A DNA stretch of 47,384 bases from the sequence record DRR723986_5541; one strand, given 5' to 3'. Positions 1,788 to 35,139 of this stretch are shown here, piece after piece. The notes below the pieces were generated by a model. That model did no database searches and was not told the origin of the DNA. It worked only from the letters and a program-made list of their open reading frames with translations. A program made the position numbers and the translations under genes. Each line of letters begins with the position of its first letter. Position 1 is the first letter of the stretch.

Positions 1788-2756
1788 GTGATTAGCATAC
1801 ACGCTATACGCGAGTATATCACCGGTGCGCGGCGCCCAGCTGCGGACCTGCCCGAATACGCTGAGCTGCGCGACGACGAGCGCGAATACTTTGCGCAGAT
1901 GGGCATCGAAACGTATTACGATGCGGGTGAAGTCGGTGCCTTTGAGCTGGCGCTGCGCGCTTCCGAGGAAGTTCTGGCCCAGAGCGGCGTTGGCGGCGAT
2001 GAGATTGACTACATCATCTACATCCGGCCGCGCATTCCCGATCAGTTTATCAGCTCCGATGCTACGCGCCTGCAGGATGCACTTGACGCGCAGCGCGCAT
2101 GTAGTTTTGGACTGAGCGATCTTGGCTGTGTGGACAGCACCATGGCACTGAAGCTGGCGCGCGACCTGCTGCTGGCCAACCGCCGCGCACGTTACGTTCT
2201 GATAGCTTATGGCCACAAACAATATTCGCCGCGCCGCTTCCGCATGCCGGTAACTATTCAGGGAGATGGCGGCGTAGCGGCCCTGATCGGCCGCGGCGAG
2301 AACAATACGATTGTGGATATCGAGCTTGAATCCAACGGGCGTTACTGGGATCTGTTTGCCATGCAATACCGCGACCGCACCTTTGCCGAGTACAGCGAGC
2401 AGGTATCCGATCCGCGCAAATACGGCTTTGAATTGGCCGTGGAAAGCAAAAATCGTTTTGTAGAGCTTAACAAACGACTGACCGAGCGCAATGGCCTCAG
2501 CCTTGAAGGCATGCAGCACGTCATGATGCAGAACATCGCCCGCCGCGCCTTTGACTATTATGAGATGGCGCTGGGCTGCAGCATTTCGCCCGTGTGCAAA
2601 ATGAACCTTGCGCAGTACGGCCACCTTGGCTGTGCCGATATTCTGTTAAACTACAAAACCGGTTTAGAGACCGGCATGGTCAATCCCGGCGACAACGTTC
2701 TGTTAATGAATAACAGTCCCGTTGCTGCCTGGAGCGGCGTAATCGTAAAAGCTTAA
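1788..2756 (+). CDS. 3-oxoacyl-ACP synthase III (FabH)-like protein with non-canonical triad
   Basis: 322 aa; Cys114 in DLGCVDS, GDGGVAALI motif, YGHLGCAD in place of FabH GNT; Gln248 at the FabH His position; GGAG RBS before GTG. Confidence 0.85.
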   Translation: MISIHAIREYITGARRPAADLPEYAELRDDEREYFAQMGIETYYDAGEVGAFELALRASEEVLAQSGVGGDEIDYIIYIRPRIPDQFISSDATRLQDALDAQRACSFGLSDLGCVDSTMALKLARDLLLANRRARYVLIAYGHKQYSPRRFRMPVTIQGDGGVAALIGRGENNTIVDIELESNGRYWDLFAMQYRDRTFAEYSEQVSDPRKYGFELAVESKNRFVELNKRLTERNGLSLEGMQHVMMQNIARRAFDYYEMALGCSISPVCKMNLAQYGHLGCADILLNYKTGLETGMVNPGDNVLLMNNSPVAAWSGVIVKA

Positions 2757-3923: not shown

Positions 3924-4003
3924 TGCTATTTTATCAATCAGAATCACTGCACTGCGATGTTAAACAGTGACCGCCAAGTATTTTATTAGTGCGAGATAGA
4001 CCT

Positions 4004-16878: not shown

Positions 16879-19800
16879 GTAAAGGTGCGGCAATCGAAGA
16901 TATTTATCAGTTAGCGCCCATGCAGGAAGGCATGCTGTTCCACAGTGTGTACGCTACAGGCGTTGAAGTCTACTTCCAGCAAGCCCATGGTGACATGTTT
17001 GGCGAGTTTAACCGGGAATTGTTTAAACAAGCCTGGGATGACGTAATTGCACGCCATGCTGTTCTGCGCACTGCTTTTTACTGGGAAAACCTCGATGCAC
17101 CAATGCAGGTTGTCATGCGCGAAGCCAGGATGCCCTGGACCGAACTTGACTGGCGAGAAGTATCCGCAGAAAAACTGGAAGATGACTTTCAGCATTTTTT
17201 GCGTGAAGACCGTGCGGAAGGATTTGCTCTGGGAAGTGCGCCGCTCATGCGTTTTGCGCTGCTGCGTCTGACTGAAGACAAGTATCGTTTTGTCTGGAGT
17301 TTTCACCACATAGTTTTGGATGGTTGGTCAACTGCAATTGTTTTGGCAGACGTTCTTGAAGCCTACCAGGCCAGACTTGCCGGAAGAGAACTGGACAAAA
17401 AGGCTCCACTGCCCTTTAAACACTACGTGGAGTATGTTAAACAACGTGACCCCAACTCAGCCAAAGCGTTTTGGCGTGAATATCTGAATGGAGTTACTGC
17501 GCCGTCACTGGTGCAGATGGATCGCATGGAGTCCGGCGCTGCCGTCGCTGAAGTCCGCGGAGAGTACATCCAGTCACTGGGGCGCGAACTGACGGACGCA
17601 CTTTCAGGCAGCTCACGCAGCCTGGGTACAACGGTTAATGCGATTGTGCAGGCCGCCTGGACTCTGGCGCTGGCCATCGAAACCGGGCGCGCTGACGTCA
17701 TTTTTGGTGCTACAGTTTCTGGGCGTCCTGCAAACCTGGAACGCGTAGAAGAAATTGTTGGGCTCTTGATTAACACTCTGCCTGTGCGCAAACAGATTAA
17801 CTGGCAATTGAGTGCTGCTGATTTGATTCGCGAGTTAAGTGCCGACCATGCCGTCAAGGATGAATATGCACAAACGCCATTGAGTGACATTGCTGCATGC
17901 AGTGACCTGGGGCGCGGTGCAGAGCTGTTTGATAGTTTGCTGGTCTTTGAAAACTTTCCGATGCTTATCGAGCCGGATAGTCAACGCGATTTGCAGTTTG
18001 ACAACTTCGGTGGATTTGAGCGCACCAATTTTGCTTTAACAATTCTTGTGATTCCGGGTACGGAATTGGGCTTGCGTTGGGTTTATGATGGCGCAGCCCT
18101 CAGCCACAACACAGTGGAGCGTCTGGCTGAGTTCATGCAGCATATATTGCAGGCGTTTACGCGCAATGTTAACAGGCCGCTGCTGAGCTTGGCGTTAACT
18201 GACGCATCACAAACGCGTGCACTGCGCACCTTGAGCCGCGGAACGACGACAAAGCCGAGTGCCTCAAACCTGATTGAATTGTTCGATAATGCCTGCCGCG
18301 AACACGCTGACAAGACGGCCCTCGTAGATTCAAATACAAGGCTGTCTTATGCTGAAATGCAGCACTTAAGTAATGCGATGGCGCAAGTGCTCCGTGCAAA
18401 CGGTGTTGGGTTGGGTGACGTAGTTGGAATTCAGCTGGAGCGTTCAGCAGTGTCGGCCGTAGTGTTAAGTGCTGTGCTACGCTGTGGCGCGGCTTACCTG
18501 GCGCTTGATCCGGTCTATCCGCAGGAACGGCGCACATTTATGGCGCAGGATGCGGACCTGAAACTGTTAATCAGCGCTTCTGCGGACAGTGACGTGGGCA
18601 GTGATTTAAACAGTGACGTGGGCAGTTCTGAATTGGCGGAATTGTACAAATGTGAACAGCTGTCGCTGGATGAATTGCTGGCTGAGTTGGAAGGAGAGCG
18701 GCACTCCAAAGTTGAACTGCCGGTATTTCCTGGTGAGCGGACTGCAGCCTACCTGATGTATACATCCGGTTCCACAGGCCGCCCAAAAGGTGTCGTACAT
18801 GAACATGCAGCCTTAATTAATCTAATTTACTGGCAGGTCAACGATTCTGAGTTTTCCTCCGGCGCGCGATCTGCGCAGCTGGCTTCCTATAGTTTTGACG
18901 TGTCTTTTCAGGAGTTGTTTGCCACCTGGGTGAGCGGCGGTGAACTGCACATTGTTTCTGAAGATGTTAAACGCGACCCGGGTTTGTTGCTCCAGCAGAT
19001 TGCATCTGCTCAACTGGAACGAATCACATTGCCGTATGTGGGCCTGCGCTCCCTGGCGTCACATGCTTTGGAGGCTAAGACTGCAGAGCTGCAACTGCGT
19101 GAAATTCTGACGTCCGGCGAGCAGTTGGTGGCCGACGCTGCTATTCAGGAGTGGGTTGGTTCCCTGGGCGCACGTCTGCGCAATCAGTATGGCCCGACTG
19201 AAAGCCATGTATGTACTGATTATGTTTTGCCACGGAATGTTGCGGAATGGTCTGTTCTGCCGCCAATCGGGCGTCCTGTTAACAACTGTGAAGTCTATAT
19301 ACTGGATGCCAACCTGCGGCCGCTTCCGCGCGGATTTGTGGGTGAGCTGTATCTGGCTGGTCGCAGCCTGGCACGCGGATATGTTAACCGGCCGGGACAA
19401 ACGGCGGAGCGTTTTGTGCCGAATCCTTTGGGCCGCGCCGGTGAGCGCATGTATCGTAGCGGCGATCTGGCCCGCTGGACAGCTGACGGCAACCTGGAAT
19501 TTGTGGGCCGCGCCGACGCACAGGTGAAAATCCGTGGTTACAGGGTGGAGCCTGGAGAAATTGAACAGGTTTTGCAGGCCTGTTCCGGTGTTCGTGCCGC
19601 CGCCGTTACACTGCGTGGCTCTGGTGATGAAGCGCGCCTTTTGGCTTTTGTGTGTTGCGACTCCCAGGTCGATCCCGATCTTGGCAGGATTCGAAATCAG
19701 CTGGCCGCAGTTCTGCCGGATTATATGCTTCCGAGCGTTTATACCGTGCTGGAAAATCTGCCTTTAACATCCAGCGGCAAGATCGACCGGCGTGCATTGC

Positions 19801-22800
19801 AGCAGATTGCTCCAGAGGGCGCCGGCCGGGCGCTGGACCGGAGCGTACCGCGAACGCCAAGCGAAGAAGTGATTCTGGGAATCTGGCGCAGCCTGCTGGA
19901 TAATCAAACACTGGGAATTCACGCGGACTTCTTTGACGCCGGTGGCCATTCGCTGCTGGCTACACGTCTTGTAGCACGCCTGCGCCCTATTTTCCAGCGT
20001 GAGATACCCGTCCGCCTTGTTTTTGAGAATCCAAGTGTTGCGGCCTTAAGTGCTGCCCTTGCAGCTATTGACAAGTCGGACAAACTTCATGAGATTCCAT
20101 TCCGTACGGCGGATGCGGCCTTGCTGCTGGCACCGGCACAGTTGCGACTCTGGTTTATAGAAATCTTACAGGGCGCAAGTCCACAGTATAATTTGCCGGC
20201 GGCGGTTAAGCTGCGCGGAGACCTGGACCAGCGCGCGCTGCAGACGGCTGTTAAACATCTTGTAGCGCGGCATGCAGTCCTGCGCACGCGTATTTTGAAC
20301 GATGCCGGAAGTGCACGTCCTTTGCTTGCCGATGCAGCTGAGTTTGAAGTTGACGTCCAGGAGACTTCGGCAGACATATTTCATGATGCCGACAAATTAC
20401 AGGAGCGCGTTGCACAAATAGCCTGGCAGCCTTTTAGTCTGGATATTGACCTGCCGATCCGATGTTCACTGCTGCGCGCCTCTGCTACGGAGCACGTCCT
20501 GGTTCTGGTCGTGCACCACATCGCATTCGACGGTTGGTCACAGTCGGTGCTGGTGCGTGAGTTCAGTGAGATCTACGGATTGTTAAGCCGCGGGGAGACG
20601 CTCCCGGCACGTAAACGCAAACTCGATTATCACGATCTGGCGGCCTGGTGGGGGAGCCCCGACGGCGAAGCCAACCTGGCTGAAGATCTGGACTATTGGC
20701 GTGAAGTATTTGCCGCTGAAGTTGCGGTCCTGCAGTTGCCCGCAGATAAAAGCAGACCAGAAGAACGCAAATACAATGGCGCGACCTATAATCTGGAATT
20801 TGATGCGGAAACAACGGCGGCACTACATGCGCTGGCTCGCGAACAGAATTCCAGCCTGTATATGCTTTTGCTCGCAGCTTACGTCTGGATTTTGGCGCGG
20901 CATGCCAATGTCAAAGATGTGGTGGTTGCTACACCTGTGGCCAACCGCCGCCGCACAGAATTTGAGTCGATTATTGGCTTTTTTGTTAACACCCTGCCAC
21001 TGCGCTTCAGCGTTGATTTCTCTTCAGAGCTGTCGGACTTACTGCAGCATGTGCGCACGGTGACGCTGGAGGCGTTTAACCATCAGGACGCGCCTTTTGA
21101 CAAGATTGTGGAGGCCGTCCAGTCGGGACGCGACCTGGGGAGCACACCACTGGCGCAGACATCTTTTATTCTGCAGAATACACCTGAACCCGTGCTGGAG
21201 CTGCCGGGCCTGCAGTCTGAAGTCGTTGAGCTGGCCGCACCGAATGTCAAGCATGAAATTGACATGGTATTTATGGAGCTGGCCGATGCTGGAGCCGATG
21301 CAATCGGTACTGAAAATGGGACACGGCTGATTGGTGCGATTGATTATGATCGCGATGTTTTTTCTGCTGATGAGATAGAGAACCTGGCGCTGCGATTCCG
21401 CCGCGCGCTGCAGCTGATTTTGCGCGACAGGACACTGAGCCTGCAGACGTCGGAGTTGTTGAGTGACGTGGATAATGAGCGGCTTGACGTATTGCGTGGC
21501 AACGCACTGCCGCTGCCTGTCGTAGGCTCTGGGGAATCAGGTTTTGCGGCGGAGGGAACAGCGGATGACATTCTTGCCTCCAGCCTGGAATACTTTGCGC
21601 TGCACTCGCCTGATTCGGAGGCATTGGTCTCAGCGGCTGAGCGGCTGACGTACGCGCAGTTAAACGCCAGAGTGAATCAGTGGGCGCATTTATTTGTGCG
21701 GCAGGGTGTCAGGCCCGGCGATCGCATTGTGCTGCTGCTGGGTAATCACTTTGACTACAGCATACTGTTAAGTGCCGCGCTGAAATGCGCTGCGAGTTTT
21801 GTGCCCGTAAATGTTAACAGTCCGGATGCGCGCCTGCAATTGATTGTCCAGGAGTGTGCTCCGCGTTTGCTTGTGCACGCAGACTCCAATTGGGAAAGCG
21901 AAGTGGACTGCCCGGTCCTGAGTCTGGAGCAAGCTGGGCATCAGCTGATTTCTATGCCGGAAACTAACCCAGGTATTGGCGCACATGCCGAGCAGGCCGC
22001 GTACTGCATATTTACTTCCGGCTCAACCGGCAAACCCAAAGGCGTTGAAGTGCCGCGCCAGGCGTTAAAGCGGACCTTGCACAGTTTCTGCAGCCTAACT
22101 GAAATTGGACCGGAGAGCCGCGTCCTGGGTTACGTTGCTCCAGGCTTTGATGCCGTTCTGCTGGAAGCTCTGGGGCCTCTGATGGTCGGAGCGTGTATTT
22201 GTTCCGCCGCTTCGATTTCACGTGTTAACCCCAGCGATGTGCAGCGCGATACAAGCGTCCTGCAGCCGACACATTTGCATTTTGCCGTGGCCCTTTATGC
22301 AACATTGCTGGAAAGTGGTCTGCAGGTCGACACCAGCGTTACTGATGTAATCGTGGGTGGTGATGTTCTTCATGACGCTATAGCTCAACTGCATCACGAT
22401 CGTTTGCCGGCGGTTAAGTTGCACAATGGTTATGGGCCGACCGAAACGACGATCATGGTCACGCAAGACTATGTTAAACAGCTGCCGGTCAGTTTGGGTA
22501 AACCGCTCGACTTCGTGGGCTGCTACATTCTGGATCAAAGCGGCCAGAGACAGATTCCCGGGGTTGCCGGTGAACTATTCATTGGAGGACCGGCACTAGC
22601 ACAGGGTTATCTGAATAATCCGCGGCAGACCGCGAGTGTGTTTTTACCAGATCCCTGGGCTACGGAACCCGGCAGTCGCATGTATCGCACGGGTGACATC
22701 GTACGCCTGCGCCAGGGCGACAAACTGGAATTTCACGGTCGCAGCGACAATCAGGTGAAAGTTCGCGGAGTGCGCGTAGAACCGGGAGAACTTGAAAACA

Positions 22801-25800
22801 CTCTGATGTCACATCCACTCGTGGCGCGTGCGCAAGTTACTGTGCGCCGTGATGAGGCTGAAGCCGGAAGCGAAAACAGTTTGCATGTTTTCTGTACACT
22901 GCAGGCAGGATCAAAGGCCGAATCGGCGATCAATGTTAAAGAGTTAAACAGCTTTCTGGCTGCACGGCTACCGGAATATCTGCAGCCGACTACACTTAAC
23001 ATTCTGGATGAGTTTCCTTTAACGACCAATGCCAAGATAGATGTCAAGGCTTTAAACCGTCTGATTGTTTTGGATAAACAGGCAGAAGAATTTGTTGCTC
23101 CATTGCCGGGCCTGGAGACAGATGTTGCTGCTGTCTGGAGTGCACTGCTCGATAATGCAAAAATCGGCAGGCATGATGACTTCTTCCGCCGCGGCGGACA
23201 TTCACTTCTGGCGGTCAGGGCCGGGGCGCGCCTTGCAGAGACTCTGGGAATCGAGCCACCGGTTCAGATGATTTTTCGTCACCCGACTTTAAGTCGATAT
23301 GCTGCGGCGCTGGCGGAAGTGAGTGCCACAGGCAGCCTGGAACCACAGGAACAAGGTCTGGAGTTGCTACCGCGCGAGCATCCAGCGGAGCGGCCGCTTT
23401 CCTTTGCGCAGGAACGCCTTTGGTTCCTGGACCAGCTTGAAGGTGGTGGACGGGTTTACCTGATGCCGATGATGCTGCGTCTGCGCGGTACCTTAACCGT
23501 CAGCGACCTGAGTGCAGCGTTAAACAAATTGGTTCAACGGCATGAGCAATTGCGCAGCATGTTCCCAGCCATCAATGGACAGGCGCGGCAAGTCCCCGTT
23601 GAAGCCTCACGACTTGAAGTTGGAAGGATTGAGCGCGACGAAGAATATACGCTGCAGGAGCAGCTGGAGGCGGAGGCCCTGCGCGAAGTTGAGCAAGACT
23701 TTGATCTGCAATCCCAGTTGCCGATCCGTGCGCGCCTGCTGGACATAGCCGCAGACGACAAGGTTTTGATTGTCACACTGCACCACATCGTGGCCGATGG
23801 CTGGAGTATGGGAATTCTGGCCGATGAGTTGGGCGCGATTCTGCGTGGAGAAGACCTGCAGGCTCTTGACATTTCCTATGCCGACTTTGCAGCCTGGCAA
23901 CGCGATGAAGCACGCCTGAAACGCGACGAAGCCCAACTGGACTATTGGCGCACGGCATTGGCCGACGCTCCCGAAGCTCTTGACTTACCAACTGACCGGC
24001 CACGACCTGCACAGGCAAGTCATCGTGGGGCGGTGTACAACTGGGAGCTGGATGCGGAGACAACGGCAATACTTAAACAACAGTGTGCTGCGCAGGGCAT
24101 GACTTTAAGTATGTCACTCAGTGGATTGTGGGCCGTCTTGCTGGCTCGTTTCTGCGGAACCGATGACATAAGTATTGGCATGCCGGTTGCGAACCGGCGC
24201 CCGGCGGTAACCGAAAAAATAGTCGGTTTATATCTGAATACGGTCGTTCTGCGCGTCAGACCCGAGCCATTAACTTCTCTGCACGAGGTGCTGGAGCAAG
24301 TGCGCGAGAGTTCCCTCGCGGCTCTGGCCAATCAGGATGTGCCCTTTGAGCGCGTGGTGGAAGCTGTGCAGCCCAGCCGTTCCCTTAGCCGGACGCCCCT
24401 GTTTCAGGTCATGTTTGTAATGCACAACATGCCTTCCGGAGCACTGGAAAGGCAGGGGCTTAAAATTGAATCACTTGAAATGCCGGTTTCGGGTGCGCGT
24501 TTTGATTTGACTCTTACCTGCCGCGAAACCGAGTCTGGAATCGCATGCTCAGTTGAGTATGCGCTGGACCTGTTTGGTGAGGACTCCGTGCGTCGCCTGG
24601 CGGAATTGTATAGCGGTCTGATTGCTTCAGTTCAGCGGGAGCAGCATACACCTGTTGCCGCACTGCCACTTAACAATTACAGCAGCAGGCATGCGGAAGT
24701 TATCACGCCTCCTGCGGCGCGCTTTCGTGGTGGTGTTCATGTCTTTTTTGAAGCCTGGGCTCAACGCGACGGCGATAAACCCGCGATTCGTTTTGAAGGC
24801 AAAACCTATCGTTTTGCGCAGGTAAATGCTCTTGCCAATTCGGTTGCGCGCGCCTTGAACGAACAAGGTGCCGGCCCGGAGCAAGTTATCGGAATCTGCG
24901 CCGAACGTTCACCGGAAATGATTGCCGCCCTGTTTGGCATTTTGAAAACGGGTGCGGCATTTCTGCCGCTGGAGCCGAGCCTTCCCGCAGAACGCCTGGC
25001 GGGCATGATTGCAGATGCAAATGCTAATCTGGTTCTCTGTGATGCCGTCGGTGAGCTGGTCCTGAAACCAGTCGAATGCCGCAAAATGCCCCTGCTGTCC
25101 ATCAAACCGCAAGAGTTTGATTCTACAAACTTTCCAACACCATTGCTAGGTCGCGACAGCGCCGCATATGTCGTCTTCACATCCGGTTCTACGGGGCGCC
25201 CCAAAGGTGCGCTAAATACGCATGGAGCGCTCTGGAATCGTCTGGCATGGATGGAGGAATATTTGGATATGGGGCCGCTGGACCGGGTGCTTCACAAAAC
25301 GCCGATATCCTTTGATGTGTCCGTCTGGGAACTGATTCTGCCCCTCTGTACCGGTGGCCTGCAAGTCATAGCACGTCCGGAAGGGCATCGCGACGCCGCT
25401 TACCTGGCGAGCCTGATACAGTCGGAAGGTGTCACGATTTTGCACTTTGTGCCGCCGATGCTGCGCGTTTTCCTGGAGGAGGCAAGTGCGGAACAGCTTT
25501 CACAGGTACGGCATATCATTTGCAGCGGCGAAGCGCTGTCCCCGGATTTGGTTGAGCTGACGCACCGCAGCTGTGTAGCCGAAGTGCACAATCTATATGG
25601 GCCTACCGAAGCGGCGATTGACGTCAGCGCCTGGCGCACGACGCTTGCCAGCGAACGCAGTGTGCCTATCGGCCATGCTATTGATGGAGTGGAACTGCTC
25701 GTACTGGATGCATTTATGCAGCCCTTGCCGCCTGGCGTTCCCGGTGAGCTTTATATCGGTGGCGTCGCCCTTGCGCGCTGTTACGCCGGTAAATCGGCGC

Positions 25801-28800
25801 AGACTGCTGAGGCATTTGTGCCGCACCCATACGCCGATGGTGCGCGCCTGTATCGCACGGGAGACATAGCGCGCCGGCGCCCGGATGGGGCGATTGAATT
25901 TGTGGGCCGCCGTGATCACCAGATAAAACTGCGCGGCTTCCGCATTGAACTGGGAGAAATTGAGCAGCAGAGTCAAAAACTACATTGGGTGCGCAACAGC
26001 GTAGCCGTAGTTCGCGAGCGCGCAGTCTACCTGTTTGCCGAGGCAGAAGCCACGCATCAGGGGACGCAAGATGCCGAACTGCTGATGGAACATTTGCGAC
26101 GCATCCTGCCCGAATACATGCTGCCACAGGAAATCGTCCTGATGGCCCAAATGCCACTCACACCGAATGGCAAAATTGATCGTCGCCGACTGCCGGCAAT
26201 CCGCAAGCCGGACGATGAGTTAACATATGTGGCTCCGCGCAGTGCGCACGAAGCGCTCCTGGCTGATATCTGGGCGGACGTTCTGGGGCGTAAGCGCGTC
26301 GGGATTCACGACAACTATTTTGCTTTGGGTGGTGATTCCATTCTCAGCATTCAAATACTGGCGCGCGCACGTACCGCCGGATTGCACTTAACAGTTCGCG
26401 ATGTATTTGAGCGCCAGACAATAGCTGAGCTGGCGGTAATGGCCGGCCGCGGCGGGATTGTACAGGCGGAGCAGGGCAGCGTTACCGGCCGCGCGCCACT
26501 GACGGCGATTCAGGAGTGGATGTTTGCGCAAGATTTGCAGAATCCCAATCATTTTAATCAGAGTTTGATGTTCCAGGTTCCGGTCGATTTTGACGCGGAA
26601 CGTGCCTACCTTATTCTTAACCGCCTGGCCGAACATCACGATGCGCTGCGCACGCAGTTTGTTAAGCATGATGCTACCTGGGAACAGGTGTGGAACGCCG
26701 AGAGCAATGTACCGATTGTCTGGAAGTCCGCACAGATTCTAAGTGCCGACCCGGCCGTGCAAGTGGAACGGCTTGAAAAACATTGTGCGCAGCTGCAGGC
26801 GGCTTTTGACCTAAAAAATGGACCGGTGTTTGGCGGTGCGTACTTTAAAATGGCGGGCTCGGCGCCCGGGCGTTTTCTAATTCTGGCACACCACCTGGTA
26901 GTTGACGGCGTGTCCTGGCGCATTCTTCTTGAAGATTTTGTGCAACTGTATCGCAGTCCGGGAAGCCTGACTGGTGTTGAACTGCCTTCGAAGTCTACCG
27001 CGTATCGCGATTGGGCGCGCGCGCAGCAGCAGTGGGCCAATCAGGACCTTCCACAATCGGTTCAGGCTGAATGGCAGGCCTGGCTGCGCCGTAAAGGTGG
27101 GCGCCTGCCGCTGCTGCCGGAGATGCAGGCAGCAGCAAATCCGGACAGTGTTAACACAAATCTGGCGGCCGAAGAAGTTAATCTGGTAGTTGTGCCGGAG
27201 TTGGCGCGTGCACTAACCGAAACGGTCGCTTCAATTCGGGGCTGCTCAACGGATGAAATCCTGCTGGCGGCTATTGCTCGCGTGTTAACACGCCTTGCCG
27301 CTGCCGAGCATGTGCGCATTGATGTTGAAGGGCATGGACGCGATACAAACATCACATCCATGGATCTCTCGCGCACTGTCGGTTGGTTTACTACAATTTT
27401 ACCGCTGCTGGTCACACCCGACGTGGGCGGCAATGTATTGCATGACCTCAAAGCTATTAAACAAGCTTTACGTGGGGCGCCGCATGGTGCCGCGGCTTAT
27501 GGCGCTCTGCGATATGTTAACAAGGATAACAGTGTCCGCGAATCGATGCAGGCCTGCCCTCCGGCAGACTTGCTCTATAATAATCACGGCAATGTACGCT
27601 CTGGCAGTGACGAGTTTTTAAAACCGGCGGGCGAACGCGGAGGACCGATGTACGCGCCCGAAAATCAGCGCTCTCACCGCCTGGAAATTAACGCTATTAC
27701 ACAAGATGGGCAGCTGGCAATTGTCCTGCGTTATGCCGCCGCGCTGTACGATGCCGAATTGATCGATGCATTGTGCAGTGGAATTCGCGATGAGCTGGCA
27801 GCGCTCCTGGCGCAACTGCGGACCGTCAAAAGTCCAATTCAAACGCCATCTGATTTTCCACTGTTTACCATGTCTCAGACGGAACTGGATGCGGTTACCG
27901 ACGGCCGTTTTGTGCAAGACATTCTGCCGATTACGGCTGCGCAGCGCGGCATGCTCGTAGAATCAATTTCAGTGGCGGACCGCAATCTGCACGTTGAACA
28001 GCATGTCTATAGTTTAACTTCCATGCGTGATCCGCAGCAGTTAAAAGACGTCTGGCAGCGCACCCTGCTAAGGCATGAGAGTCTGCGCGCCGCCTTTGTC
28101 TGGTCACCAACGCTGGGACCAATGCAGTTGATTGAACATGACGTCAGGCTGCCATGGCGCCGCGTGGTTTTATTGACAAACGATCCCGCAGATCGCGATG
28201 AAGAACGCCGCCGGCTGATTGAAAATGAGCTTGCACAGCCTTTTAACCTGGAACGCGCACCGCTGATGCGCCTTTTGTACATTGATGAGGGAGAAGGACG
28301 CGCAAGCCTGGTCTGGACACATCATCATATTCTGGTTGACGGCTGGTCCGTGGGCCTTGTGTTGCGCGAGCTGCTGGCAGGGATAGGGCAGGAAACAACT
28401 ACAATTTCACGGCCGGCGCCGCTGCGCAGTTACATGCAGTGGTTAACAACGCGCGATCGTGAGGCGGCTCAGGCGTGGTGGCAAAACAACTGTAAAAATG
28501 TCAAGTTTCCAACGCCGCTGGGACAGGCCGCGCAAGCCCCTGCCACAATTGCTCCTGACACTGGTTTTGGACACTTTGATCGCGCCTGGTCGGTCCACGA
28601 AAGTGAGATGCTGCGCGCGGCTGCGCGTGAGGCACGCACTACTTCAACCACGTACCTGCATGCAGCCTGGGCACTGGTGCTCGCAGCCAACTCAGGCCGG
28701 CAGTATGTCGCGTTTGGCGCGACGGTCAGCGGGCGTCCGGCCGACCTCCCGGGCACGGAGGAAATGACCGGGATGTTTATTAACACCTTGCCGGTCGTGA

Positions 28801-30422
28801 TTGAAATAAATGCAGAAAACACTGTTGCACATTCGATTGGCCGGATTCATGCCGCCGCCCTGGAACGCCGCGAATTCGAGTGGAATTCCGCCGGTGAGAT
28901 TCACGACTGGGTAGGCGCCGATCGCGGTGCCGGGTTGTTTGACAGTTTGCTGGTAGTCGAAAACTTCCCCGCAGGCCACTCCGAAGCTGAGAGTGCCGGC
29001 CTGGAACTCGGTGATTTCCAGGCGCGTGGCGCCCAAACCGCGCATCCCATAACACTGATGCTCGCAGAAAGTGATCGCCTGCATCTGCGCATGGTATTCC
29101 AGAACGCATGGCTGAACCAGGCGACCGCCGACCTGTTGCTGCAACAGCTGCAATGTGCATTAAAACTCCTGGTGCAATCCAGGGAACAGACTATTGCGGC
29201 GATTATCGCTGAAGTCCGCCAACTCGGAACGCCAGAATTACTTCAGCATCGAAGTCACACAGACTCTATCCCCAAGCAGGTGAGTCTTGCAAGCACAAGC
29301 GAACTCACAAAACCATCAAACCGCGATGAACAAGTGGTGTTTGAGATTTGGTCGGAGCTTCTGCAGCGCGACAATTTCAGTGTGACCGACAATTTCTTTG
29401 ATCTGGGCGGCAGCTCACTGCTTGCCGTGCGCATGATTCAGCGCTTAAATCAGGTGTGTAAGCGCAACATTGCACCTGCCGATCTACTGCGCGCCGGCAA
29501 CATTGTTAACATCGCTCAAATGTTGGCAAACGATGAGGAAAAAGTCTGGACGCCATTAGTTGCGTTGGCGGAGAATAGTGACAAGGCCGTAATGCTGCTC
29601 GTGCATCCGGCCGGTGGTAATGTGATGTGTTACCACGAACTCGCCAGGGCCCTCAGCGGGGAACTGAGCGTCTACGGTTTACAGGCGATGGGGCTGCGCG
29701 ACGGTCAAAACCCAATCGAATCGATAGCAGAGATGGCCGCGTTCTATCTGGATTCAGTTGAGGCTGAAATGGCTGGGCGCGATCTATTCATTGCCGGATG
29801 GTCCTTCGGCGGTGCCGTTGCCCAGGAAATGGCCGTGCAGGCCAGGCAGCGTTTACTGCCTTTGCGCCAGGTCTTTATCATCGATTCTTATCCGATGGCC
29901 GACAGTGACGAGGCCATGCCACGCGACGAAGCTGAACTCCTGGCCGCAATTGTTAAAGAACATTTTGACGTTGATCCGGATAATTTGCGCGCACATTCAG
30001 CCAATATGCTCGAATATCTTGTCGATAAAATGCATGCCGCCGGCGCGCTGGATGCAAATGTAGGGCATGCCGACGCACAGAGAATGATCGATGTGTTCCG
30101 GCGTAACACCAGCATGCAGCACAAACCGCAGCACTTTGACGGGACGATGATGATCCTGCGCGCCGCCGAACACCCTGCGCCATTCGATGGGGTGGAGCTG
30201 CTCCAGCGCTGGAATGGCCTGGCTAATTCTGTCAAAGATGCAGTCATCGGCGGCACGCACGACACGATTGTCTATGCGCCGCATGTGAATCGTATGGCCG
30301 ACGTCATTTTGGCGGAATGTCAGGAGCAGCGGCAGGGGAGCCGGCCAAAATCACGCATGCAAGGTGCGCCTGCGGGCCTGCCGCAATTCTCACCCAGTGA
30401 CAAACAAAAAGGTGAGCCCTGA
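16875..30422 (+). CDS. NRPS2: C(DCL)-A(Pro-like)-T-C-A(unassigned)-T-C-A(Ser)-T-E-C(DCL)-T-TE
   Basis: Four C motifs (HHIVLDG 17304, HHIAFDG 20514, HHIVADG 23781, HHHILVDG ~28320); three A cores; T motifs GGHSL, GGHSL, GGDSI, GGSSL; E HHLVVDGVSW/EGHGRD; TE GWSFG (29796); GTGA overlap with the NRPS1 stop. Confidence 0.95.
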   Translation: MSKGAAIEDIYQLAPMQEGMLFHSVYATGVEVYFQQAHGDMFGEFNRELFKQAWDDVIARHAVLRTAFYWENLDAPMQVVMREARMPWTELDWREVSAEKLEDDFQHFLREDRAEGFALGSAPLMRFALLRLTEDKYRFVWSFHHIVLDGWSTAIVLADVLEAYQARLAGRELDKKAPLPFKHYVEYVKQRDPNSAKAFWREYLNGVTAPSLVQMDRMESGAAVAEVRGEYIQSLGRELTDALSGSSRSLGTTVNAIVQAAWTLALAIETGRADVIFGATVSGRPANLERVEEIVGLLINTLPVRKQINWQLSAADLIRELSADHAVKDEYAQTPLSDIAACSDLGRGAELFDSLLVFENFPMLIEPDSQRDLQFDNFGGFERTNFALTILVIPGTELGLRWVYDGAALSHNTVERLAEFMQHILQAFTRNVNRPLLSLALTDASQTRALRTLSRGTTTKPSASNLIELFDNACREHADKTALVDSNTRLSYAEMQHLSNAMAQVLRANGVGLGDVVGIQLERSAVSAVVLSAVLRCGAAYLALDPVYPQERRTFMAQDADLKLLISASADSDVGSDLNSDVGSSELAELYKCEQLSLDELLAELEGERHSKVELPVFPGERTAAYLMYTSGSTGRPKGVVHEHAALINLIYWQVNDSEFSSGARSAQLASYSFDVSFQELFATWVSGGELHIVSEDVKRDPGLLLQQIASAQLERITLPYVGLRSLASHALEAKTAELQLREILTSGEQLVADAAIQEWVGSLGARLRNQYGPTESHVCTDYVLPRNVAEWSVLPPIGRPVNNCEVYILDANLRPLPRGFVGELYLAGRSLARGYVNRPGQTAERFVPNPLGRAGERMYRSGDLARWTADGNLEFVGRADAQVKIRGYRVEPGEIEQVLQACSGVRAAAVTLRGSGDEARLLAFVCCDSQVDPDLGRIRNQLAAVLPDYMLPSVYTVLENLPLTSSGKIDRRALQQIAPEGAGRALDRSVPRTPSEEVILGIWRSLLDNQTLGIHADFFDAGGHSLLATRLVARLRPIFQREIPVRLVFENPSVAALSAALAAIDKSDKLHEIPFRTADAALLLAPAQLRLWFIEILQGASPQYNLPAAVKLRGDLDQRALQTAVKHLVARHAVLRTRILNDAGSARPLLADAAEFEVDVQETSADIFHDADKLQERVAQIAWQPFSLDIDLPIRCSLLRASATEHVLVLVVHHIAFDGWSQSVLVREFSEIYGLLSRGETLPARKRKLDYHDLAAWWGSPDGEANLAEDLDYWREVFAAEVAVLQLPADKSRPEERKYNGATYNLEFDAETTAALHALAREQNSSLYMLLLAAYVWILARHANVKDVVVATPVANRRRTEFESIIGFFVNTLPLRFSVDFSSELSDLLQHVRTVTLEAFNHQDAPFDKIVEAVQSGRDLGSTPLAQTSFILQNTPEPVLELPGLQSEVVELAAPNVKHEIDMVFMELADAGADAIGTENGTRLIGAIDYDRDVFSADEIENLALRFRRALQLILRDRTLSLQTSELLSDVDNERLDVLRGNALPLPVVGSGESGFAAEGTADDILASSLEYFALHSPDSEALVSAAERLTYAQLNARVNQWAHLFVRQGVRPGDRIVLLLGNHFDYSILLSAALKCAASFVPVNVNSPDARLQLIVQECAPRLLVHADSNWESEVDCPVLSLEQAGHQLISMPETNPGIGAHAEQAAYCIFTSGSTGKPKGVEVPRQALKRTLHSFCSLTEIGPESRVLGYVAPGFDAVLLEALGPLMVGACICSAASISRVNPSDVQRDTSVLQPTHLHFAVALYATLLESGLQVDTSVTDVIVGGDVLHDAIAQLHHDRLPAVKLHNGYGPTETTIMVTQDYVKQLPVSLGKPLDFVGCYILDQSGQRQIPGVAGELFIGGPALAQGYLNNPRQTASVFLPDPWATEPGSRMYRTGDIVRLRQGDKLEFHGRSDNQVKVRGVRVEPGELENTLMSHPLVARAQVTVRRDEAEAGSENSLHVFCTLQAGSKAESAINVKELNSFLAARLPEYLQPTTLNILDEFPLTTNAKIDVKALNRLIVLDKQAEEFVAPLPGLETDVAAVWSALLDNAKIGRHDDFFRRGGHSLLAVRAGARLAETLGIEPPVQMIFRHPTLSRYAAALAEVSATGSLEPQEQGLELLPREHPAERPLSFAQERLWFLDQLEGGGRVYLMPMMLRLRGTLTVSDLSAALNKLVQRHEQLRSMFPAINGQARQVPVEASRLEVGRIERDEEYTLQEQLEAEALREVEQDFDLQSQLPIRARLLDIAADDKVLIVTLHHIVADGWSMGILADELGAILRGEDLQALDISYADFAAWQRDEARLKRDEAQLDYWRTALADAPEALDLPTDRPRPAQASHRGAVYNWELDAETTAILKQQCAAQGMTLSMSLSGLWAVLLARFCGTDDISIGMPVANRRPAVTEKIVGLYLNTVVLRVRPEPLTSLHEVLEQVRESSLAALANQDVPFERVVEAVQPSRSLSRTPLFQVMFVMHNMPSGALERQGLKIESLEMPVSGARFDLTLTCRETESGIACSVEYALDLFGEDSVRRLAELYSGLIASVQREQHTPVAALPLNNYSSRHAEVITPPAARFRGGVHVFFEAWAQRDGDKPAIRFEGKTYRFAQVNALANSVARALNEQGAGPEQVIGICAERSPEMIAALFGILKTGAAFLPLEPSLPAERLAGMIADANANLVLCDAVGELVLKPVECRKMPLLSIKPQEFDSTNFPTPLLGRDSAAYVVFTSGSTGRPKGALNTHGALWNRLAWMEEYLDMGPLDRVLHKTPISFDVSVWELILPLCTGGLQVIARPEGHRDAAYLASLIQSEGVTILHFVPPMLRVFLEEASAEQLSQVRHIICSGEALSPDLVELTHRSCVAEVHNLYGPTEAAIDVSAWRTTLASERSVPIGHAIDGVELLVLDAFMQPLPPGVPGELYIGGVALARCYAGKSAQTAEAFVPHPYADGARLYRTGDIARRRPDGAIEFVGRRDHQIKLRGFRIELGEIEQQSQKLHWVRNSVAVVRERAVYLFAEAEATHQGTQDAELLMEHLRRILPEYMLPQEIVLMAQMPLTPNGKIDRRRLPAIRKPDDELTYVAPRSAHEALLADIWADVLGRKRVGIHDNYFALGGDSILSIQILARARTAGLHLTVRDVFERQTIAELAVMAGRGGIVQAEQGSVTGRAPLTAIQEWMFAQDLQNPNHFNQSLMFQVPVDFDAERAYLILNRLAEHHDALRTQFVKHDATWEQVWNAESNVPIVWKSAQILSADPAVQVERLEKHCAQLQAAFDLKNGPVFGGAYFKMAGSAPGRFLILAHHLVVDGVSWRILLEDFVQLYRSPGSLTGVELPSKSTAYRDWARAQQQWANQDLPQSVQAEWQAWLRRKGGRLPLLPEMQAAANPDSVNTNLAAEEVNLVVVPELARALTETVASIRGCSTDEILLAAIARVLTRLAAAEHVRIDVEGHGRDTNITSMDLSRTVGWFTTILPLLVTPDVGGNVLHDLKAIKQALRGAPHGAAAYGALRYVNKDNSVRESMQACPPADLLYNNHGNVRSGSDEFLKPAGERGGPMYAPENQRSHRLEINAITQDGQLAIVLRYAAALYDAELIDALCSGIRDELAALLAQLRTVKSPIQTPSDFPLFTMSQTELDAVTDGRFVQDILPITAAQRGMLVESISVADRNLHVEQHVYSLTSMRDPQQLKDVWQRTLLRHESLRAAFVWSPTLGPMQLIEHDVRLPWRRVVLLTNDPADRDEERRRLIENELAQPFNLERAPLMRLLYIDEGEGRASLVWTHHHILVDGWSVGLVLRELLAGIGQETTTISRPAPLRSYMQWLTTRDREAAQAWWQNNCKNVKFPTPLGQAAQAPATIAPDTGFGHFDRAWSVHESEMLRAAAREARTTSTTYLHAAWALVLAANSGRQYVAFGATVSGRPADLPGTEEMTGMFINTLPVVIEINAENTVAHSIGRIHAAALERREFEWNSAGEIHDWVGADRGAGLFDSLLVVENFPAGHSEAESAGLELGDFQARGAQTAHPITLMLAESDRLHLRMVFQNAWLNQATADLLLQQLQCALKLLVQSREQTIAAIIAEVRQLGTPELLQHRSHTDSIPKQVSLASTSELTKPSNRDEQVVFEIWSELLQRDNFSVTDNFFDLGGSSLLAVRMIQRLNQVCKRNIAPADLLRAGNIVNIAQMLANDEEKVWTPLVALAENSDKAVMLLVHPAGGNVMCYHELARALSGELSVYGLQAMGLRDGQNPIESIAEMAAFYLDSVEAEMAGRDLFIAGWSFGGAVAQEMAVQARQRLLPLRQVFIIDSYPMADSDEAMPRDEAELLAAIVKEHFDVDPDNLRAHSANMLEYLVDKMHAAGALDANVGHADAQRMIDVFRRNTSMQHKPQHFDGTMMILRAAEHPAPFDGVELLQRWNGLANSVKDAVIGGTHDTIVYAPHVNRMADVILAECQEQRQGSRPKSRMQGAPAGLPQFSPSDKQKGEP
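18586..18626 (+). repeat. 17-bp direct duplication with 24-bp period inside an A-domain loop
   Basis: ACAGTGACGTGGGCAGT at 18586 and 18610, encoding SDVGSDLNSDVGS. Confidence 0.9.
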
Positions 30423-30731: not shown

Positions 30732-30953
30732 ATGTGGGATGATGAAAACGCAATTTTTCATGTGGTAGTTAACAAAGAAGAGCAATACTCAATTTGGCCT
30801 GAAGACCGCGACCTTCCGCTTGGATGGAGCAAAATCGGCTTTAAGGGTACCAAACAGGAATGCCTGGACCATATCGATGAAATCTGGACCGATATGCGCC
30901 CTTTGAGCCTCCGCAAAAAAATGGAAGAAGACGCGCGCAAGGCCACTGACTAG
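30732..30953 (+). CDS. mbtH: MbtH-like NRPS accessory protein
   Basis: VVVNKEEQYSIWP...PLGW...CLDHIDEIWTDMRPLSL with the three conserved Trp. Confidence 0.97.
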   Translation: MWDDENAIFHVVVNKEEQYSIWPEDRDLPLGWSKIGFKGTKQECLDHIDEIWTDMRPLSLRKKMEEDARKATD

Positions 30954-31043: not shown

Positions 31044-31739
31044 ATGCAGATAGTTTTTTTGCCCTTTGCCGGTGGCAGCAGCTTTTCATACAACGTCCTG
31101 CGCGAGCACCTTTCCGGTGTTGATTCGCTGCTCATGCTTGAGCCGCCCGGCCGCGGACGTCGCCTGCGTTCCCCCTTGTTGCGCAACTTTGATGCAATTG
31201 TCGATGACATTGTGACGCAGATGCAGGACAAGCTGGAGGAAGGCTACACGCTGTTTGGCCACAGCATGGGGGCGCTCCTGGTCCGCGAAGTTGTCCATGA
31301 GTTACGCAAACGCTCTATGCCTTTGCCAGTTCACATGGTTTGCACGGGATGTGAAGCTCCCTGCCATTCGCCGAAGGGGCGCAACTATCACGAGCTATCG
31401 CGCGCTGAATTGATTGAAGTTTTGCGCAACTTTGGCGGCAGCCAGGGTGAAATTCTGGATCATGCTGAGTTGATGGAAATGCTGGAACCCGTGTTTCGCG
31501 CCGACTTCGAAGCTGTTGAAACTTATCGCTACGTTGAGCGGCCGCCGCTTGACATTCCGCTGACCGTTATGATAGGATCAGAGGAAGACATAATCCCGGA
31601 AGAGGCGCAAGCCTGGAGCCGTGAATCAAATCTTATGCGTCCACTCATTACGCTTGCGGGTGGACACTTCTTTCTTTTTGAACAGGCTTCCGAGTTTGTG
31701 AAGCACCTGTTGATTTTTGCACAGACCCCACGGCTCTAG
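31044..31739 (+). CDS. Type II (editing) thioesterase
   Basis: LPFAGGS, PGRGRR, FGHSMGA nucleophile elbow, RADF, GGHFF. Confidence 0.93.
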   Translation: MQIVFLPFAGGSSFSYNVLREHLSGVDSLLMLEPPGRGRRLRSPLLRNFDAIVDDIVTQMQDKLEEGYTLFGHSMGALLVREVVHELRKRSMPLPVHMVCTGCEAPCHSPKGRNYHELSRAELIEVLRNFGGSQGEILDHAELMEMLEPVFRADFEAVETYRYVERPPLDIPLTVMIGSEEDIIPEEAQAWSRESNLMRPLITLAGGHFFLFEQASEFVKHLLIFAQTPRL

Positions 31740-31741
31740 AA

Positions 31742-33367
31742 ATGATGACCCTGATTGACCTGCTCAAGAAAGAGTCAACAACATCCAATCGGACCATTCT
31801 GATAATGGCCGGGCTTTCTGGTATCGCAAATGCTGGAATCCTTGCCATCATTAACTCGGCCGCCGCAGAAGCCAATCACGAAGACTCCAATTTTCGCTTG
31901 ATGATGCTCTTCCTGCTTGCGCTCAGTACATTCATCTATACGCAGCGATTTATCTTTCGTGAGACCTCGTCAATTATCGAAGGCATCATCGATCAGATTC
32001 GCCTGCGGATAGCCAATAAAATTCGGCAGTCCAACCTGCTGACAATCGAAGCTCTGGGCCGTTCGGAAATTTACAGCCGTCTGACGCAGGGGACTACAAC
32101 CATCTCGCAGTCCGGCATGGCGATTATCGCCTCCGTGCAGTCGCTCATGATGGTTATCTTCGCAGTCTTTTACATTGCAACTCTCTCATTCCCGGCGTTT
32201 TTCCTGACGATCGGCATGATCGTCGGTGGTGTTTACATCTACCTGATTTACGATAAGAAAATCGTGGCCAACATCCTGCGCACCACGCGTAAGGAAGTTG
32301 AGTTTTTCACCGTAGTCACACACACGCTGGACGGATTTAAAGAGAGTAAAATGAATGCGCGCCGCGCCAGTGACCTGGAAGACCATACCAACGCTACCTC
32401 CAAAGAGCTGCGTGGATTAAAGGTCGTGACCTCCGGACTGTTTACGAACAACTACATCTTTGCACAGAGCTTCTTTTATGTGCTCCTGGCCGCCATCGTA
32501 TTTGTTCTGCCGCGCCTGATTGAAACCTACTCGGAAGATATTACCGAAATAACCTCAGCAATCCTTTTCATTATTGGACCGCTCTCAACCGTGGTGGCCG
32601 GAATCCCTGCGTACACAAACGCAAATACCGCTGCGATGGACATTGCCATGCTGGAGGGTGTGCTCGACCAGCATGAATCCGATGTGCCGGTAACGCCGAA
32701 TCAAACCGCTTTTGCAAATCGATTTGAAGAAGTGCGCCTGCACGGTATTGAGTTCAGTTATCGGGACGCTTATGGCAAACCGCTCTTTGGCGTCGGGCCC
32801 ATAGACCTGCAGCTGATCGGCGGGGAAGTCACATTTGTCGTCGGGGGGAACGGTAGCGGAAAGTCTACCTTCCTCAAACTGCTTACCAGCCTCTACAGGC
32901 CGGACCGCGGTACCGTTTCTGTTGACGGCCGTGCCGTCAATGAAGACAGCATCCAGGCCTTCCGCGAGATGTTTTCCGTAATCTTCGCTGAGTTCCACCT
33001 CTTTGATCGCCTCTACGGCCTCAAGGATATCGACGAGCGCCGCGTACAGGAACTCCTCAAGCAGTTTGAAATCGATGATAAAACCAGCTATGAAAATGGC
33101 CGGTTTACACATATCGATCTTTCAACCGGACAGCGCAAGCGCCTGGCAATGGTTGTTGCCCTTCTTGAAGACCGACCAATCTACGTCTTTGATGAGTGGG
33201 CCGCTGAGCAGGACCCCGAATTCCGACGTTATTTTTACGAAGAATTGCTGCAGGAACTTAAACTGCGTGGTAAAACCGTCGTGGCCGTAACCCACGATGA
33301 TCACTATTTCGCGAATGCCGATAAAGTCGTTAAAATGGACTACGGCAGAATTGTTCAATATCAATAA
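31742..33367 (+). CDS. Cyclic peptide export ABC transporter (PvdE/SyrD/YojI family), fused permease-ATPase
   Basis: About six hydrophobic segments; GFKE motif; Walker A GGNGSGKST; signature LSTGQRKR; FDEWAAEQDPEFRRYFY; VTHDD. Confidence 0.93.
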   Translation: MMTLIDLLKKESTTSNRTILIMAGLSGIANAGILAIINSAAAEANHEDSNFRLMMLFLLALSTFIYTQRFIFRETSSIIEGIIDQIRLRIANKIRQSNLLTIEALGRSEIYSRLTQGTTTISQSGMAIIASVQSLMMVIFAVFYIATLSFPAFFLTIGMIVGGVYIYLIYDKKIVANILRTTRKEVEFFTVVTHTLDGFKESKMNARRASDLEDHTNATSKELRGLKVVTSGLFTNNYIFAQSFFYVLLAAIVFVLPRLIETYSEDITEITSAILFIIGPLSTVVAGIPAYTNANTAAMDIAMLEGVLDQHESDVPVTPNQTAFANRFEEVRLHGIEFSYRDAYGKPLFGVGPIDLQLIGGEVTFVVGGNGSGKSTFLKLLTSLYRPDRGTVSVDGRAVNEDSIQAFREMFSVIFAEFHLFDRLYGLKDIDERRVQELLKQFEIDDKTSYENGRFTHIDLSTGQRKRLAMVVALLEDRPIYVFDEWAAEQDPEFRRYFYEELLQELKLRGKTVVAVTHDDHYFANADKVVKMDYGRIVQYQ

Positions 33368-34359: not shown

Positions 34360-35139
34360 GTGATTGAAGATGCATCATCCGGCTCCAGGCTGGATTTCGT
34401 GGCGCTGGATCTGCAGCACTGCCGCCAGATTTTGGACGCCAAGGGTTATCCGCCCGGTGTTGATCCCGCGCGTCACGCGGCTATCCAAAAGTTTGTGCGT
34501 CCGGTTGATCAGTTGCGCGCCTGGGCCGGTGAAATCTGCGCGCGTTTCCTGCTGATTAACACTTTACACTGCGCGCCGCAGGATGTCCAAATCGTGCGCG
34601 ACCGCTTTAACAAGCCCTGCCTGCAGCATGGTGCAGGCGACGCCCCCGAGTTTAACATCTCACATTCCGGTGACTGGGCCGTTGCGGTTTGTTCCGACCG
34701 CAACATTGGTGTTGACATCGAACAACATCAGGCAGTCGACTGGGCCGTTTGCCGCATCTGTTTTACACCGGCAGAACGCGCTTTACTCGAAAACTGTGCT
34801 GACGAATCTGAAAAATCGCAGCTGTTCTTTCGGCTCTGGACCCTAAAAGAAGCGTACATCAAAGCGCGCGGCATGGGCATGCAAATCGATTTGCAAAGTT
34901 TTGCCATGCGGCCACAGGGGAAGCTCTGGCATGTTGATGTATCTACGGCAGCTGACAAACAAGTTTGGCAACTGTTCACGCCCGAATTCCGCAGAGGTTA
35001 TTCGCTGGCGGTATGCCGGGCTGGTGAATCCAGTGTTCCATTGAATGTTGAATCCCATCCTGGCACAAGCCATTTTGGTGTTCCGCACAATTTGAGCGCA
35101 AATATTCAGCAGTTGATTGACGTTGTTTATACGCTCTGA
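34360..35139 (+). CDS. Sfp-type 4'-phosphopantetheinyl transferase
   Basis: NKP, FNISHSG, IGVDIE, FFRLWTLKEAYIKARGMG motifs; GGAG RBS before GTG. Confidence 0.93.
   Translation: MIEDASSGSRLDFVALDLQHCRQILDAKGYPPGVDPARHAAIQKFVRPVDQLRAWAGEICARFLLINTLHCAPQDVQIVRDRFNKPCLQHGAGDAPEFNISHSGDWAVAVCSDRNIGVDIEQHQAVDWAVCRICFTPAERALLENCADESEKSQLFFRLWTLKEAYIKARGMGMQIDLQSFAMRPQGKLWHVDVSTAADKQVWQLFTPEFRRGYSLAVCRAGESSVPLNVESHPGTSHFGVPHNLSANIQQLIDVVYTL

Follow-up and report, generated by a model that had tools for sequence, protein, structure and literature searches.

A terminal module without an adenylation domain in a hybrid PKS-NRPS cluster, and the lineage of DCL-type condensation domains to which it belongs

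The terminal module of NRPS3

The stretch of DNA analysed here, 47,384 nucleotides from sequence record DRR723986_5541 and referred to below as the window, is the downstream half of a hybrid polyketide synthase (PKS)-non-ribosomal peptide synthetase (NRPS) cluster. This work concerns the end of one of its synthetases, NRPS3, where a condensation (C) domain is followed by a carrier (T) domain and a thioesterase (TE) with no adenylation (A) domain of their own. NRPS3 is a single uninterrupted open reading frame (ORF; 16875-30422, 4515 aa) with the domain string C-A-T-C-A-T-C-A-T-E-C-T-TE, where E is an epimerase. The features at its end are:

26238..26453, + strand: T5, carrier domain (from its profile), presumed bearer of a D-Ser-ended chain
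26484..27824, + strand: E5, epimerase on the donor side of C6, with HHLVVDG and EGHGR motifs
27909..29186 (aa 3679-4104), + strand: C6, DCL-type condensation domain of the lineage without A domains, HHILVDG at 28323
29316..29534 (aa 4148-4220), + strand: T6, carrier domain, DLGGSSLL at 29400
29559..30314 (aa 4229-4480), + strand: TE, type I thioesterase, GWSFGG at 29796

The initial annotation had described a terminal C-T-TE module with neither an A domain nor a frameshift, and the single ORF, the domain profiles and a six-frame scan all bear this out; its coordinates and motifs for the module are also correct. It had placed a linker of about 50 aa between C6 and T6. The linker is indeed short, however profile boundaries put the end of C6 at aa 4104 and the start of T6 at aa 4148, which leaves 44 residues. 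No remnant of an A domain was found when positions 27701-30500 were scanned in six frames with 12 short A-core patterns, as this gave five scattered chance matches only.

Catalytic motifs are present in E5, C6, T6 and the TE. The attachment serine of T6 is the codon at 29415, which fits the GGxSL site, and the TE also has an Asp motif (IDSY, 29877) and a His motif (GTHDTI, 30252). The assignment of C6 to the DCL type, made earlier from its motif, agrees with its best PDB matches (the DCL domains of PvdL, McyB, BacC and SrfA-C), with trees in which it clusters with DCL domains, and with an HHxxxDG motif and a small residue, Gly (QRGML, 27942), at the acceptor gate. C6 is directly preceded by E5, as expected of a DCL domain. 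A predicted structure (AlphaFold, pLDDT 79, pTM 0.60) and a fold search returned ordinary C, T and TE folds only. A stretch of nine identical residues is shared by T6 and one acyl carrier protein (ACP) of a related genome, G002, and similar helix-1 words occur in other carriers of that genome.

Homologous clusters

A search of 1.84 billion representatives returned the identical 13-domain string in two of the 150 proteins listed. Whole-genome searches placed both proteins in the genomes G001 and G002 and gave a third copy in G004; a search of 41 genomes around G002 yielded no new match besides this one. NRPS3 is 57% identical to its counterparts in G001 and G002 and the terminal C domain 55-56%; in the G004 counterpart the terminal C, T and TE are 38, 33 and 36% identical. 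The entire cluster of G002 lies on one contig. In a sample of 401 genomes from the phylum of G002 the match was found in G002 alone, with three candidates scored per genome, a count that does not in itself establish rarity.

The initial annotation had asked whether homologues also lack this A domain, and those in G001, G002 and G004 all do. The missing A domain could be a vestige or an artefact, produced by recent deletion or misassembly, or the C-T could be a dead unit that the chain bypasses before it reaches the TE. Because the same ending is found in these three genomes, misassembly and recent deletion are excluded to the extent that homology shows. The identities of 38-58% across this shared layout and the catalytic motifs kept across the lineage described below also speak against a vestige of any kind, and we consider this explanation highly improbable. 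The favoured reading given below takes C6-T6-TE to be a working last module that has long been without an A domain of its own.

A lineage of DCL domains that lack A domains

Among 1367 C domains from 480 proteins, the next domain was A in 1278 and T in 42. In a tree of 181 of these domains, C6 fell within a group of 13, each followed directly by T (support 98). A profile built from 12 members was then run against proteins 294-1484 aa long, so that C-A-T and C-A-T-TE proteins were within reach. After enlargement to 301 rows, the tree gives the lineage 34 rows (support 99), of which 33 are C-T, one has a truncated T and none has an A domain; all 208 A-bearing rows lie outside it. A member from Nostoc brings the lineage to 35 rows, still with no A domain. 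An IQ-TREE run with 32 members and the 24 closest A-bearing DCL domains separated the two by a single split (bootstrap 100, SH-aLRT 100); G001, L131 and P0391 were omitted from it as near or exact copies, and the bootstrap stopped short of full convergence. The sampling was steered by the profile, and the size and purity of the lineage hold for these rows only.

Members come from Cyanobacteriota, Chloroflexota and uncultured organisms, those with names being Dictyobacter, Ktedonobacteraceae and Nostoc. An E domain lies upstream in 13 of the 14 members with visible context, the exception (L129) having no NRPS gene before it. Downstream of the C-T are a TE (8), a cyclisation domain (6, 5 of them distinct), a C domain with the LCL Arg-gate motif (12) or a docking end (6); the remainder are a degenerate C or E (2) and a truncated case (1), and an ordinary DCL domain never follows. 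A lineage C-T at L126:3934-6891 is followed by an E-like domain without HHxxxD and then by the end of the NRPS, with no TE. At L160:14363-15097 an LpxO/OlsC-like hydroxylase gene stands immediately 3' of an E-C-T-TE member, and four other members end in C-TauD.

All 31 members examined have HHxxxD and 30 of them have Gly at the gate. Compared with 146 A-bearing DCL domains, these 31 carry changes of their own. The His after GML, kept in 121 of the 146, is Glu in 23 members; the Tyr before xEQ, present in 139 of the 146, is His in 27; the Leu of YxPL, present in 145 of the 146, is replaced by Ala, Gly or Ser and then Gly in 29; and the Glu before xTxYP is Ala or Gly in all 31. The His-to-Glu site is on helix 1 and adjoins residues through which FscG contacts its acceptor carrier, as described in PMC8097023. 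We infer that the other substitutions lie on the helix after YxPL and at the end of the latch. A mapping of the SxGxIH of the lineage onto R2906-V2908 of FscG was dropped, as the offsets put those residues in a later loop. A link to Tyr337 of SrfA-C is presumed, from residue numbering and an offset.

A-less C domains also lie outside the lineage, including those of a second C-T of G004, P0127, P0135, Burkholderia, Agrobacterium and Gemmatirosa. Therefore, to judge from these sequences, the loss of an A domain after an E domain is an event repeated many times. The second A-less module of G004 (L116; G004:C6:19933-28350) has the string C-A-T-C-T-C-A-T, and its C domain is of LCL type and of separate origin. 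A second A-less lineage is possible: ten LCL-side C domains, all followed by T, group together with support 95 (P0015, P0041, P0050, P0148, P0154, P0157, P0162, P0168 and P0183 are the named ones). A metagenome scan gave mostly generic DCL domains, with a C-T join in 11 of 73 loci. The literature searched, including the accessible part of a survey covering 18 C subtypes (PMC10212144), gave no account of a DCL subfamily that lacks A domains, and this negative is weak as subscription literature was thinly covered. At the level of listings, the literature on cyanochelin and Nostoc UHCC 0926 assigns no product to any lineage member.

One explanation of the lineage is that no residue is added at all. 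C6 would select the D-ended chain on T5 and transfer it to the free thiol of holo-T6. The chain would thereby reach a TE or, in relatives, a cyclisation domain, an LCL domain or a docking end, none of which could accept it across an E domain. The lineage would then be an unnamed DCL subfamily specialised as transfer adaptors for D-chains, a proposal that can only be tentative, and the hand-off itself we regard as possible though rather doubtful. The complete absence of A domains inside the lineage, set against 208 A-bearing rows outside, is consistent with it, as are the E domain upstream whatever the residue, the lack of an ordinary DCL domain as the next domain, the lineage-specific changes on helix 1 and, by the presumed mapping, at the other two places, and the frequent occurrence of C-T as a separate, adaptor-like protein with a docking end. 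The Gly gate admits an unloaded pantetheine arm, which the authors of PMC8097023 tie to pass-through, itself a hypothesis in that paper that is based on the small gate residue. However, the Gly gate is general to DCL domains and not specific to the lineage, and so is not diagnostic. In megapolipeptin synthesis MgpD has the string C-A-T-E-C-T-TE and, in the accessible part of PMC11411415, its authors need one valine only. On the other hand, delivery of a D-ended chain to an LCL domain would break the usual rule in 12 members. An adaptor is not strictly needed either, as E-TE without an insert exists (P0078, and penicillin synthetase as described), and the OcfD-like case discussed below seems to add a residue.

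The FkbH/KSIII cassette

The initial annotation had also suggested that FkbH or a KSIII-fold protein at the other end of the cluster loads a glyceryl or glycolyl unit onto T6. The genes concerned are:

239..508, + strand: discrete cassette ACP
541..1692, + strand: cassette acyl-ACP dehydrogenase (ACAD)
1788..2756, + strand: KSIII-fold protein, likely an OzmC-like acyltransferase
2808..3923, + strand: FkbH glyceryl transferase (TIGR01686, 270 bits against a cut-off of 147)
3989..7945, + strand: ketosynthase (KS)-ACP-C protein with KS Cys/His/His motifs and no acyltransferase (AT), likely the hydroxymalonyl client

The window thus holds the FkbH, discrete ACP and ACAD of an OzmB-G-type cassette. 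In G001 and G002 the ACP is directly preceded by a 3-hydroxyacyl dehydrogenase (HADH); in the window, by the same spacing, such a gene would finish immediately ahead of base 1. The gene order HADH-ACP-ACAD-KSIII-FkbH is that of ozmG-E-D-C-B of oxazolomycin minus an O-methyltransferase. OzmC is described as a discrete acyltransferase that loads this extender onto an AT-less module (PMC9057759, PMC6164871). The KSIII-fold protein keeps the invariant Cys114 and GHLGxxD; the His of the FabH HQAN motif is absent and a His replaces the FabH Asn. It has the size, position and non-FabH active-site pattern of OzmC, which was compared by description only, and its matches to ChlB3/DpsC-type proteins are weak.

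Neighbourhoods were counted within a 6-kb radius for the best 80 of 147 KSIII loci, several of which are clipped by contig ends. FkbH was found near KSIII in 73 of these 80 loci, ACAD in 75, ACP in 71, HADH in 66 and KS in 60. The cassette (window 1788-3923, L003-L080) is common in Bacteroidota and Actinomycetota beside KS and NRPS genes; a review calls OzmC unique among such loci, in the part of it available, unlike the spread seen here. The clusters of G043, G044, G049 and G054 were traced downstream (G042 and G047 were left out), and all four finish in C-A-T or C-A-T-E, never in an A-less C-T-TE. Those of G043, G044 and G049 (L004, L005, L011 and downstream) end in C-A-T or C-A-T-E without a thioesterase domain. 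When 25 cassette-bearing genomes were searched with C6-T6, with at most 57 candidates scored in each, three contiguous C-T matches were obtained, one in G054 that lies outside the C6 lineage and two in G058 that were not placed in the tree. Conversely, a plasmid cluster of Nostoc sp. UHCC 0926 ends in C-A-T-C-A-T-E-C-T-TE with a terminal C domain of the C6 lineage, and the sole FkbH on that plasmid is ~150 kb away. This Nostoc cluster contains 6 amino-acid A domains. FkbH and KSIII were not detected in G004, where the cluster is split over contigs exactly where they would be expected.

Because of the gene order and this co-occurrence, FkbH, KSIII, ACP and ACAD very probably make hydroxymalonyl and deliver it to the AT-less KS module, with no part at T6. 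Hydroxymalonyl rather than methoxymalonyl is expected, since no O-methyltransferase lies between HADH and ACP in G001 and G002. Without a ketoreductase, the product of the KS step would be a 2-hydroxy-3-oxo extended residue.

The suggestion that a glyceryl, hydroxymalonyl or glycolyl unit is placed on T6, joined as an ester by C6 and closed to a lactone by the TE, draws on the operon shared by the window, G001 and G002 and on C domains that are described as able to form esters. However, nothing is missing from the cassette, which includes both oxidising enzymes, and the AT-less KS is an obvious client for it; T6 has the motif of an ordinary pre-TE carrier and 30% identity to the ACP of the KS module. 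Moreover, the cassette and the A-less module can each be present where the other is absent. Loading of T6 by FkbH or KSIII was rejected as the main explanation and is now considered very improbable.

Loading of T6 and the favoured mechanism

With the glyceryl and glycolyl units removed, the remaining sources proposed earlier (a neighbouring A domain, a stand-alone A domain or simple chain transfer) form the right list. The candidates within the window are:

18240..19811, + strand: A3, code DVQTLSQVCK, which we take to be Pro-like
21555..23069, + strand: A4, code DALHIGGIMK, candidate T6 loader
24705..26204, + strand: A5, code DVWHISLIDK, which we take to be Ser-type, candidate T6 loader
31044..31739, + strand: type II thioesterase (TEII, GHSMG), an editor or possible aminoacyl shuttle

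All code meanings used here (Ser, Thr, Pro, Ala, Val, Asn) are likewise assumed. The A5 code is Ser-type in all four homologues and the A4 code differs between them.

G001 and G002, both metagenome-assembled genomes whose completeness is not established, have 18 AMP-binding matches each, 13 in the cluster and 5 elsewhere. Of the 13, one is a fatty-acyl ligase; the other 12 are amino-acid A domains, each part of a multi-module protein. The 5 outside genes of G002 are two acetate-CoA ligases, two fatty-acid ligase-like genes and one MenE-like gene, and they are below the TIGR01733 cut-off or not among its best hits. The stand-alone A domain that had been considered was therefore not found among the 18 matches of G002, and those of G001 agree with them in ORF length.

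Trans loading of T6 from an A-T outside the running line, of the SyrB1/SyrC, RthB/RthD or WS22/WS20 type and with a TEII as shuttle, would use a stand-alone gene beyond the window or an embedded A(Thr)-T-T, a possible donor in G001 and G002. SyrE ends in C-T-Te and is described as charged in this way (PMC8949500), and TEII shuttles are described for WS9326A, rotihibin and legonindolizidine (PMC7539972, PMC8552735, PMC8748450). A TEII is well conserved beside NRPS3, although its sequence does not separate an editing from a shuttle role, and the A(Thr)-T-T sits behind a C domain without HHxxxD in the upstream half of G001 and G002. The absence of a stand-alone amino-acid A domain from the matches of G002, and the Nostoc cluster, in which 46 kb contained no free A-T and no match to the TEII, stand against it. 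Trans loading is considered improbable.

The reading we favour, at a probability judged to be evenly balanced, is that an A domain of the line itself charges T6 with an amino acid, and that one L-residue is added after D-Ser before release by the TE. A5 would put Ser on T5 and E5 would convert it to D-Ser, in keeping with the motifs and established NRPS rules. The A domain of another module (A5, A4 or A3) would charge T6 as well, either directly or through the conserved TEII. C6 would couple the L-residue of T6 to the D-Ser-ended chain, and the TE would free the product, probably as a ring. The retention of catalytic motifs despite divergence to 33-56% identity and the lack of A domains outside multi-module proteins in G002 are both counted in favour of a borrowed A domain. 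LCL domains usually take an L donor. That 12 of the 35 lineage members pass the chain to a C domain with the LCL motif is in keeping with the addition of an L-residue at the preceding T. Another protein, P0127, with the string A-T-E-C-T-E-C-T-C, follows the same logic of an A-less C-T after E. In the synthesis of mannopeptimycin, yersiniabactin and lugdunin, a single A domain is described as serving several T domains (lugdunin, PMC8163882).

A natural precedent is the OcfD-type ending, which has the same A(Ser)-T-E-C-T-TE finish after its Ser module as NRPS3. The gene sizes given for occidiofungin are 9495 bp for ocfD, 1704 bp for ocfA and 720 bp for ocfN (PMC9494966). A cluster of Burkholderia arboris on plasmid NZ_CP101526.1 (about 691-740 kb, loci L228 and L230) agrees with the ocf gene sizes and appears occidiofungin-like, and its last gene, of exactly ocfD size at 9495 bp, reads A(Asn)-T-C-A(Ser)-T-E-C-T-TE. 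The cluster has six amino-acid A domains and no free A-T. Its OcfJ-sized gene encodes a fatty-acyl ligase-ACP-KS and its OcfK-sized gene a TauD-family protein. Occidiofungin is described as seven amino acids and a polyketide unit, with D-Ser at position 8, from which both the ring and a sequential walk lead to Asn1 (PMC10897925). Because there are six A domains for seven residues and the OcfJ-sized gene has no amino-acid A domain, Asn1 probably sits on the A-less T of the OcfD-type end and is loaded by the Asn A domain two modules back.

Several observations weigh against a borrowed A domain at T6. The published model of occidiofungin assigns Asn1 to OcfJ. In the tree the OcfD-like C domain is outside the C6 lineage, so the terminal C domains do not share this descent, and OcfD-like proteins, P0127 and other E-C-T proteins thus show the potential of E-C-T-TE rather than the behaviour of the lineage. 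Most lineage members are separate proteins that open with a C domain, and because of this a loader would need to act across polypeptides. The residue before the lineage module varies (Ser, Thr, Ile/Val-, Asn/Asp- and aromatic-type), and the conserved substitutions of the lineage are not accounted for by loss of an A domain alone. T6 is 21-32% identical to the other T domains of the window with none standing out. T-domain similarity was dropped as a pointer to the loader, as the identities are uninformative.

Other genes of the cluster

The remaining genes listed for the window are:

7945..16878, + strand: NRPS2, truncated C remnant-A-T-E-C-A-T-E
30732..30953, + strand: MbtH-like protein
31742..33367, + strand: cyclic peptide export ABC transporter (TIGR01194)
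33428-34342: SPFH/Band 7 gene, 3' of the exporter
34360..35139, + strand: 4'-phosphopantetheinyl transferase (PPTase)
35697-36257: DUF697 gene

The MbtH, TEII, exporter, SPFH and PPTase genes lie downstream of NRPS3 in G001, G002 and G004 also. Identities to G001, G002 and G004 are 79, 80 and 49% for TEII and 77, 78 and 56% for SPFH/Band 7. DUF697 genes are present at both cluster ends in G001 and G002 and at the corresponding ends of the two contigs of G004.

The upstream half of the cluster, seen in G002 (G002:C1:201190-245971, L093-L096) and in the same region of G001, has a C domain with a dead A remnant (757 aa). It also has a second AT-less KS-ACP-C, for which an acceptor is not apparent, a protein that opens with a lone T, and the A(Thr)-T-T mentioned above. 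Inside the G002 cluster is a fusion of a trypsin-like protease, an exo-endo-phosphatase and an endonuclease I (L095:9582-12719; G002:C1:229582-232719). At its place, after the corresponding KS-ACP-C, G004 has a C-A-T-E gene. In the window, imperfect short repeats (8-mers occurring 3-4 times, counted with no chance control) are found in three intergenic stretches at 1-90, 30415-30500 and ~46570-46800.

Significance

A-less modules spoil the prediction of products from sequence and each is usually treated as a one-off. A sequence marker for one class of such modules is provided by the 35 related C domains, none of which has an A domain after it, and the lineage has cultured carriers in Nostoc sp. 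UHCC 0926 and Dictyobacter spp. Should its members transfer chains, they would offer a natural means of positioning D-residues ahead of domains for release or cyclisation, and would be a natural example, recognisable in more than one phylum, of the pass-through that has so far only been hypothesised for C domains. Should they add residues, A domains would appear to be reused routinely, past E domains and from one polypeptide to another. The present results also suggest that the published assignment of Asn1 in the occidiofungin line deserves re-examination.

Comparison with known systems

The homologue of OcfD from B. arboris is also A-less after D-Ser and has no free A-T in its cluster. It differs in that its A domain was lost independently and in that its cluster encodes a TauD-family enzyme, whereas the window has none. 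Megapolipeptin MgpD has the same ending, and its second C domain is of the DCL clade with an intact HHxxxDG; in the accessible part of PMC11411415 the role of its C-T is left unassigned. Module 9 of syringomycin SyrE is described as a terminal C-T-Te without an A domain, as here (PMC8949500), however it is charged by stand-alone SyrB1 through SyrC and such an A-T was not found in G002. In mannopeptimycin, yersiniabactin and lugdunin synthesis, as described, an A-less C-T is fed by an A domain of the same line, but not in a terminal E-C-T-TE. The cassette has the gene order of oxazolomycin OzmB-G, which also serves an AT-less PKS client (PMC9057759, PMC6164871); that of G001 and G002 differs in having no O-methyltransferase between HADH and ACP. 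The small acceptor-gate residue of C6 is like that described for C domains with a proposed pass-through role, such as that of burkholdac (PMC8097023). The terminal A-less C-T-TE is itself ordinary in kind, because SyrE, MgpD and TEII-shuttled and iteratively served A-less modules are already described. What is new is that C6, within an architecture that was already known, belongs to a well-supported lineage of DCL domains without A domains.

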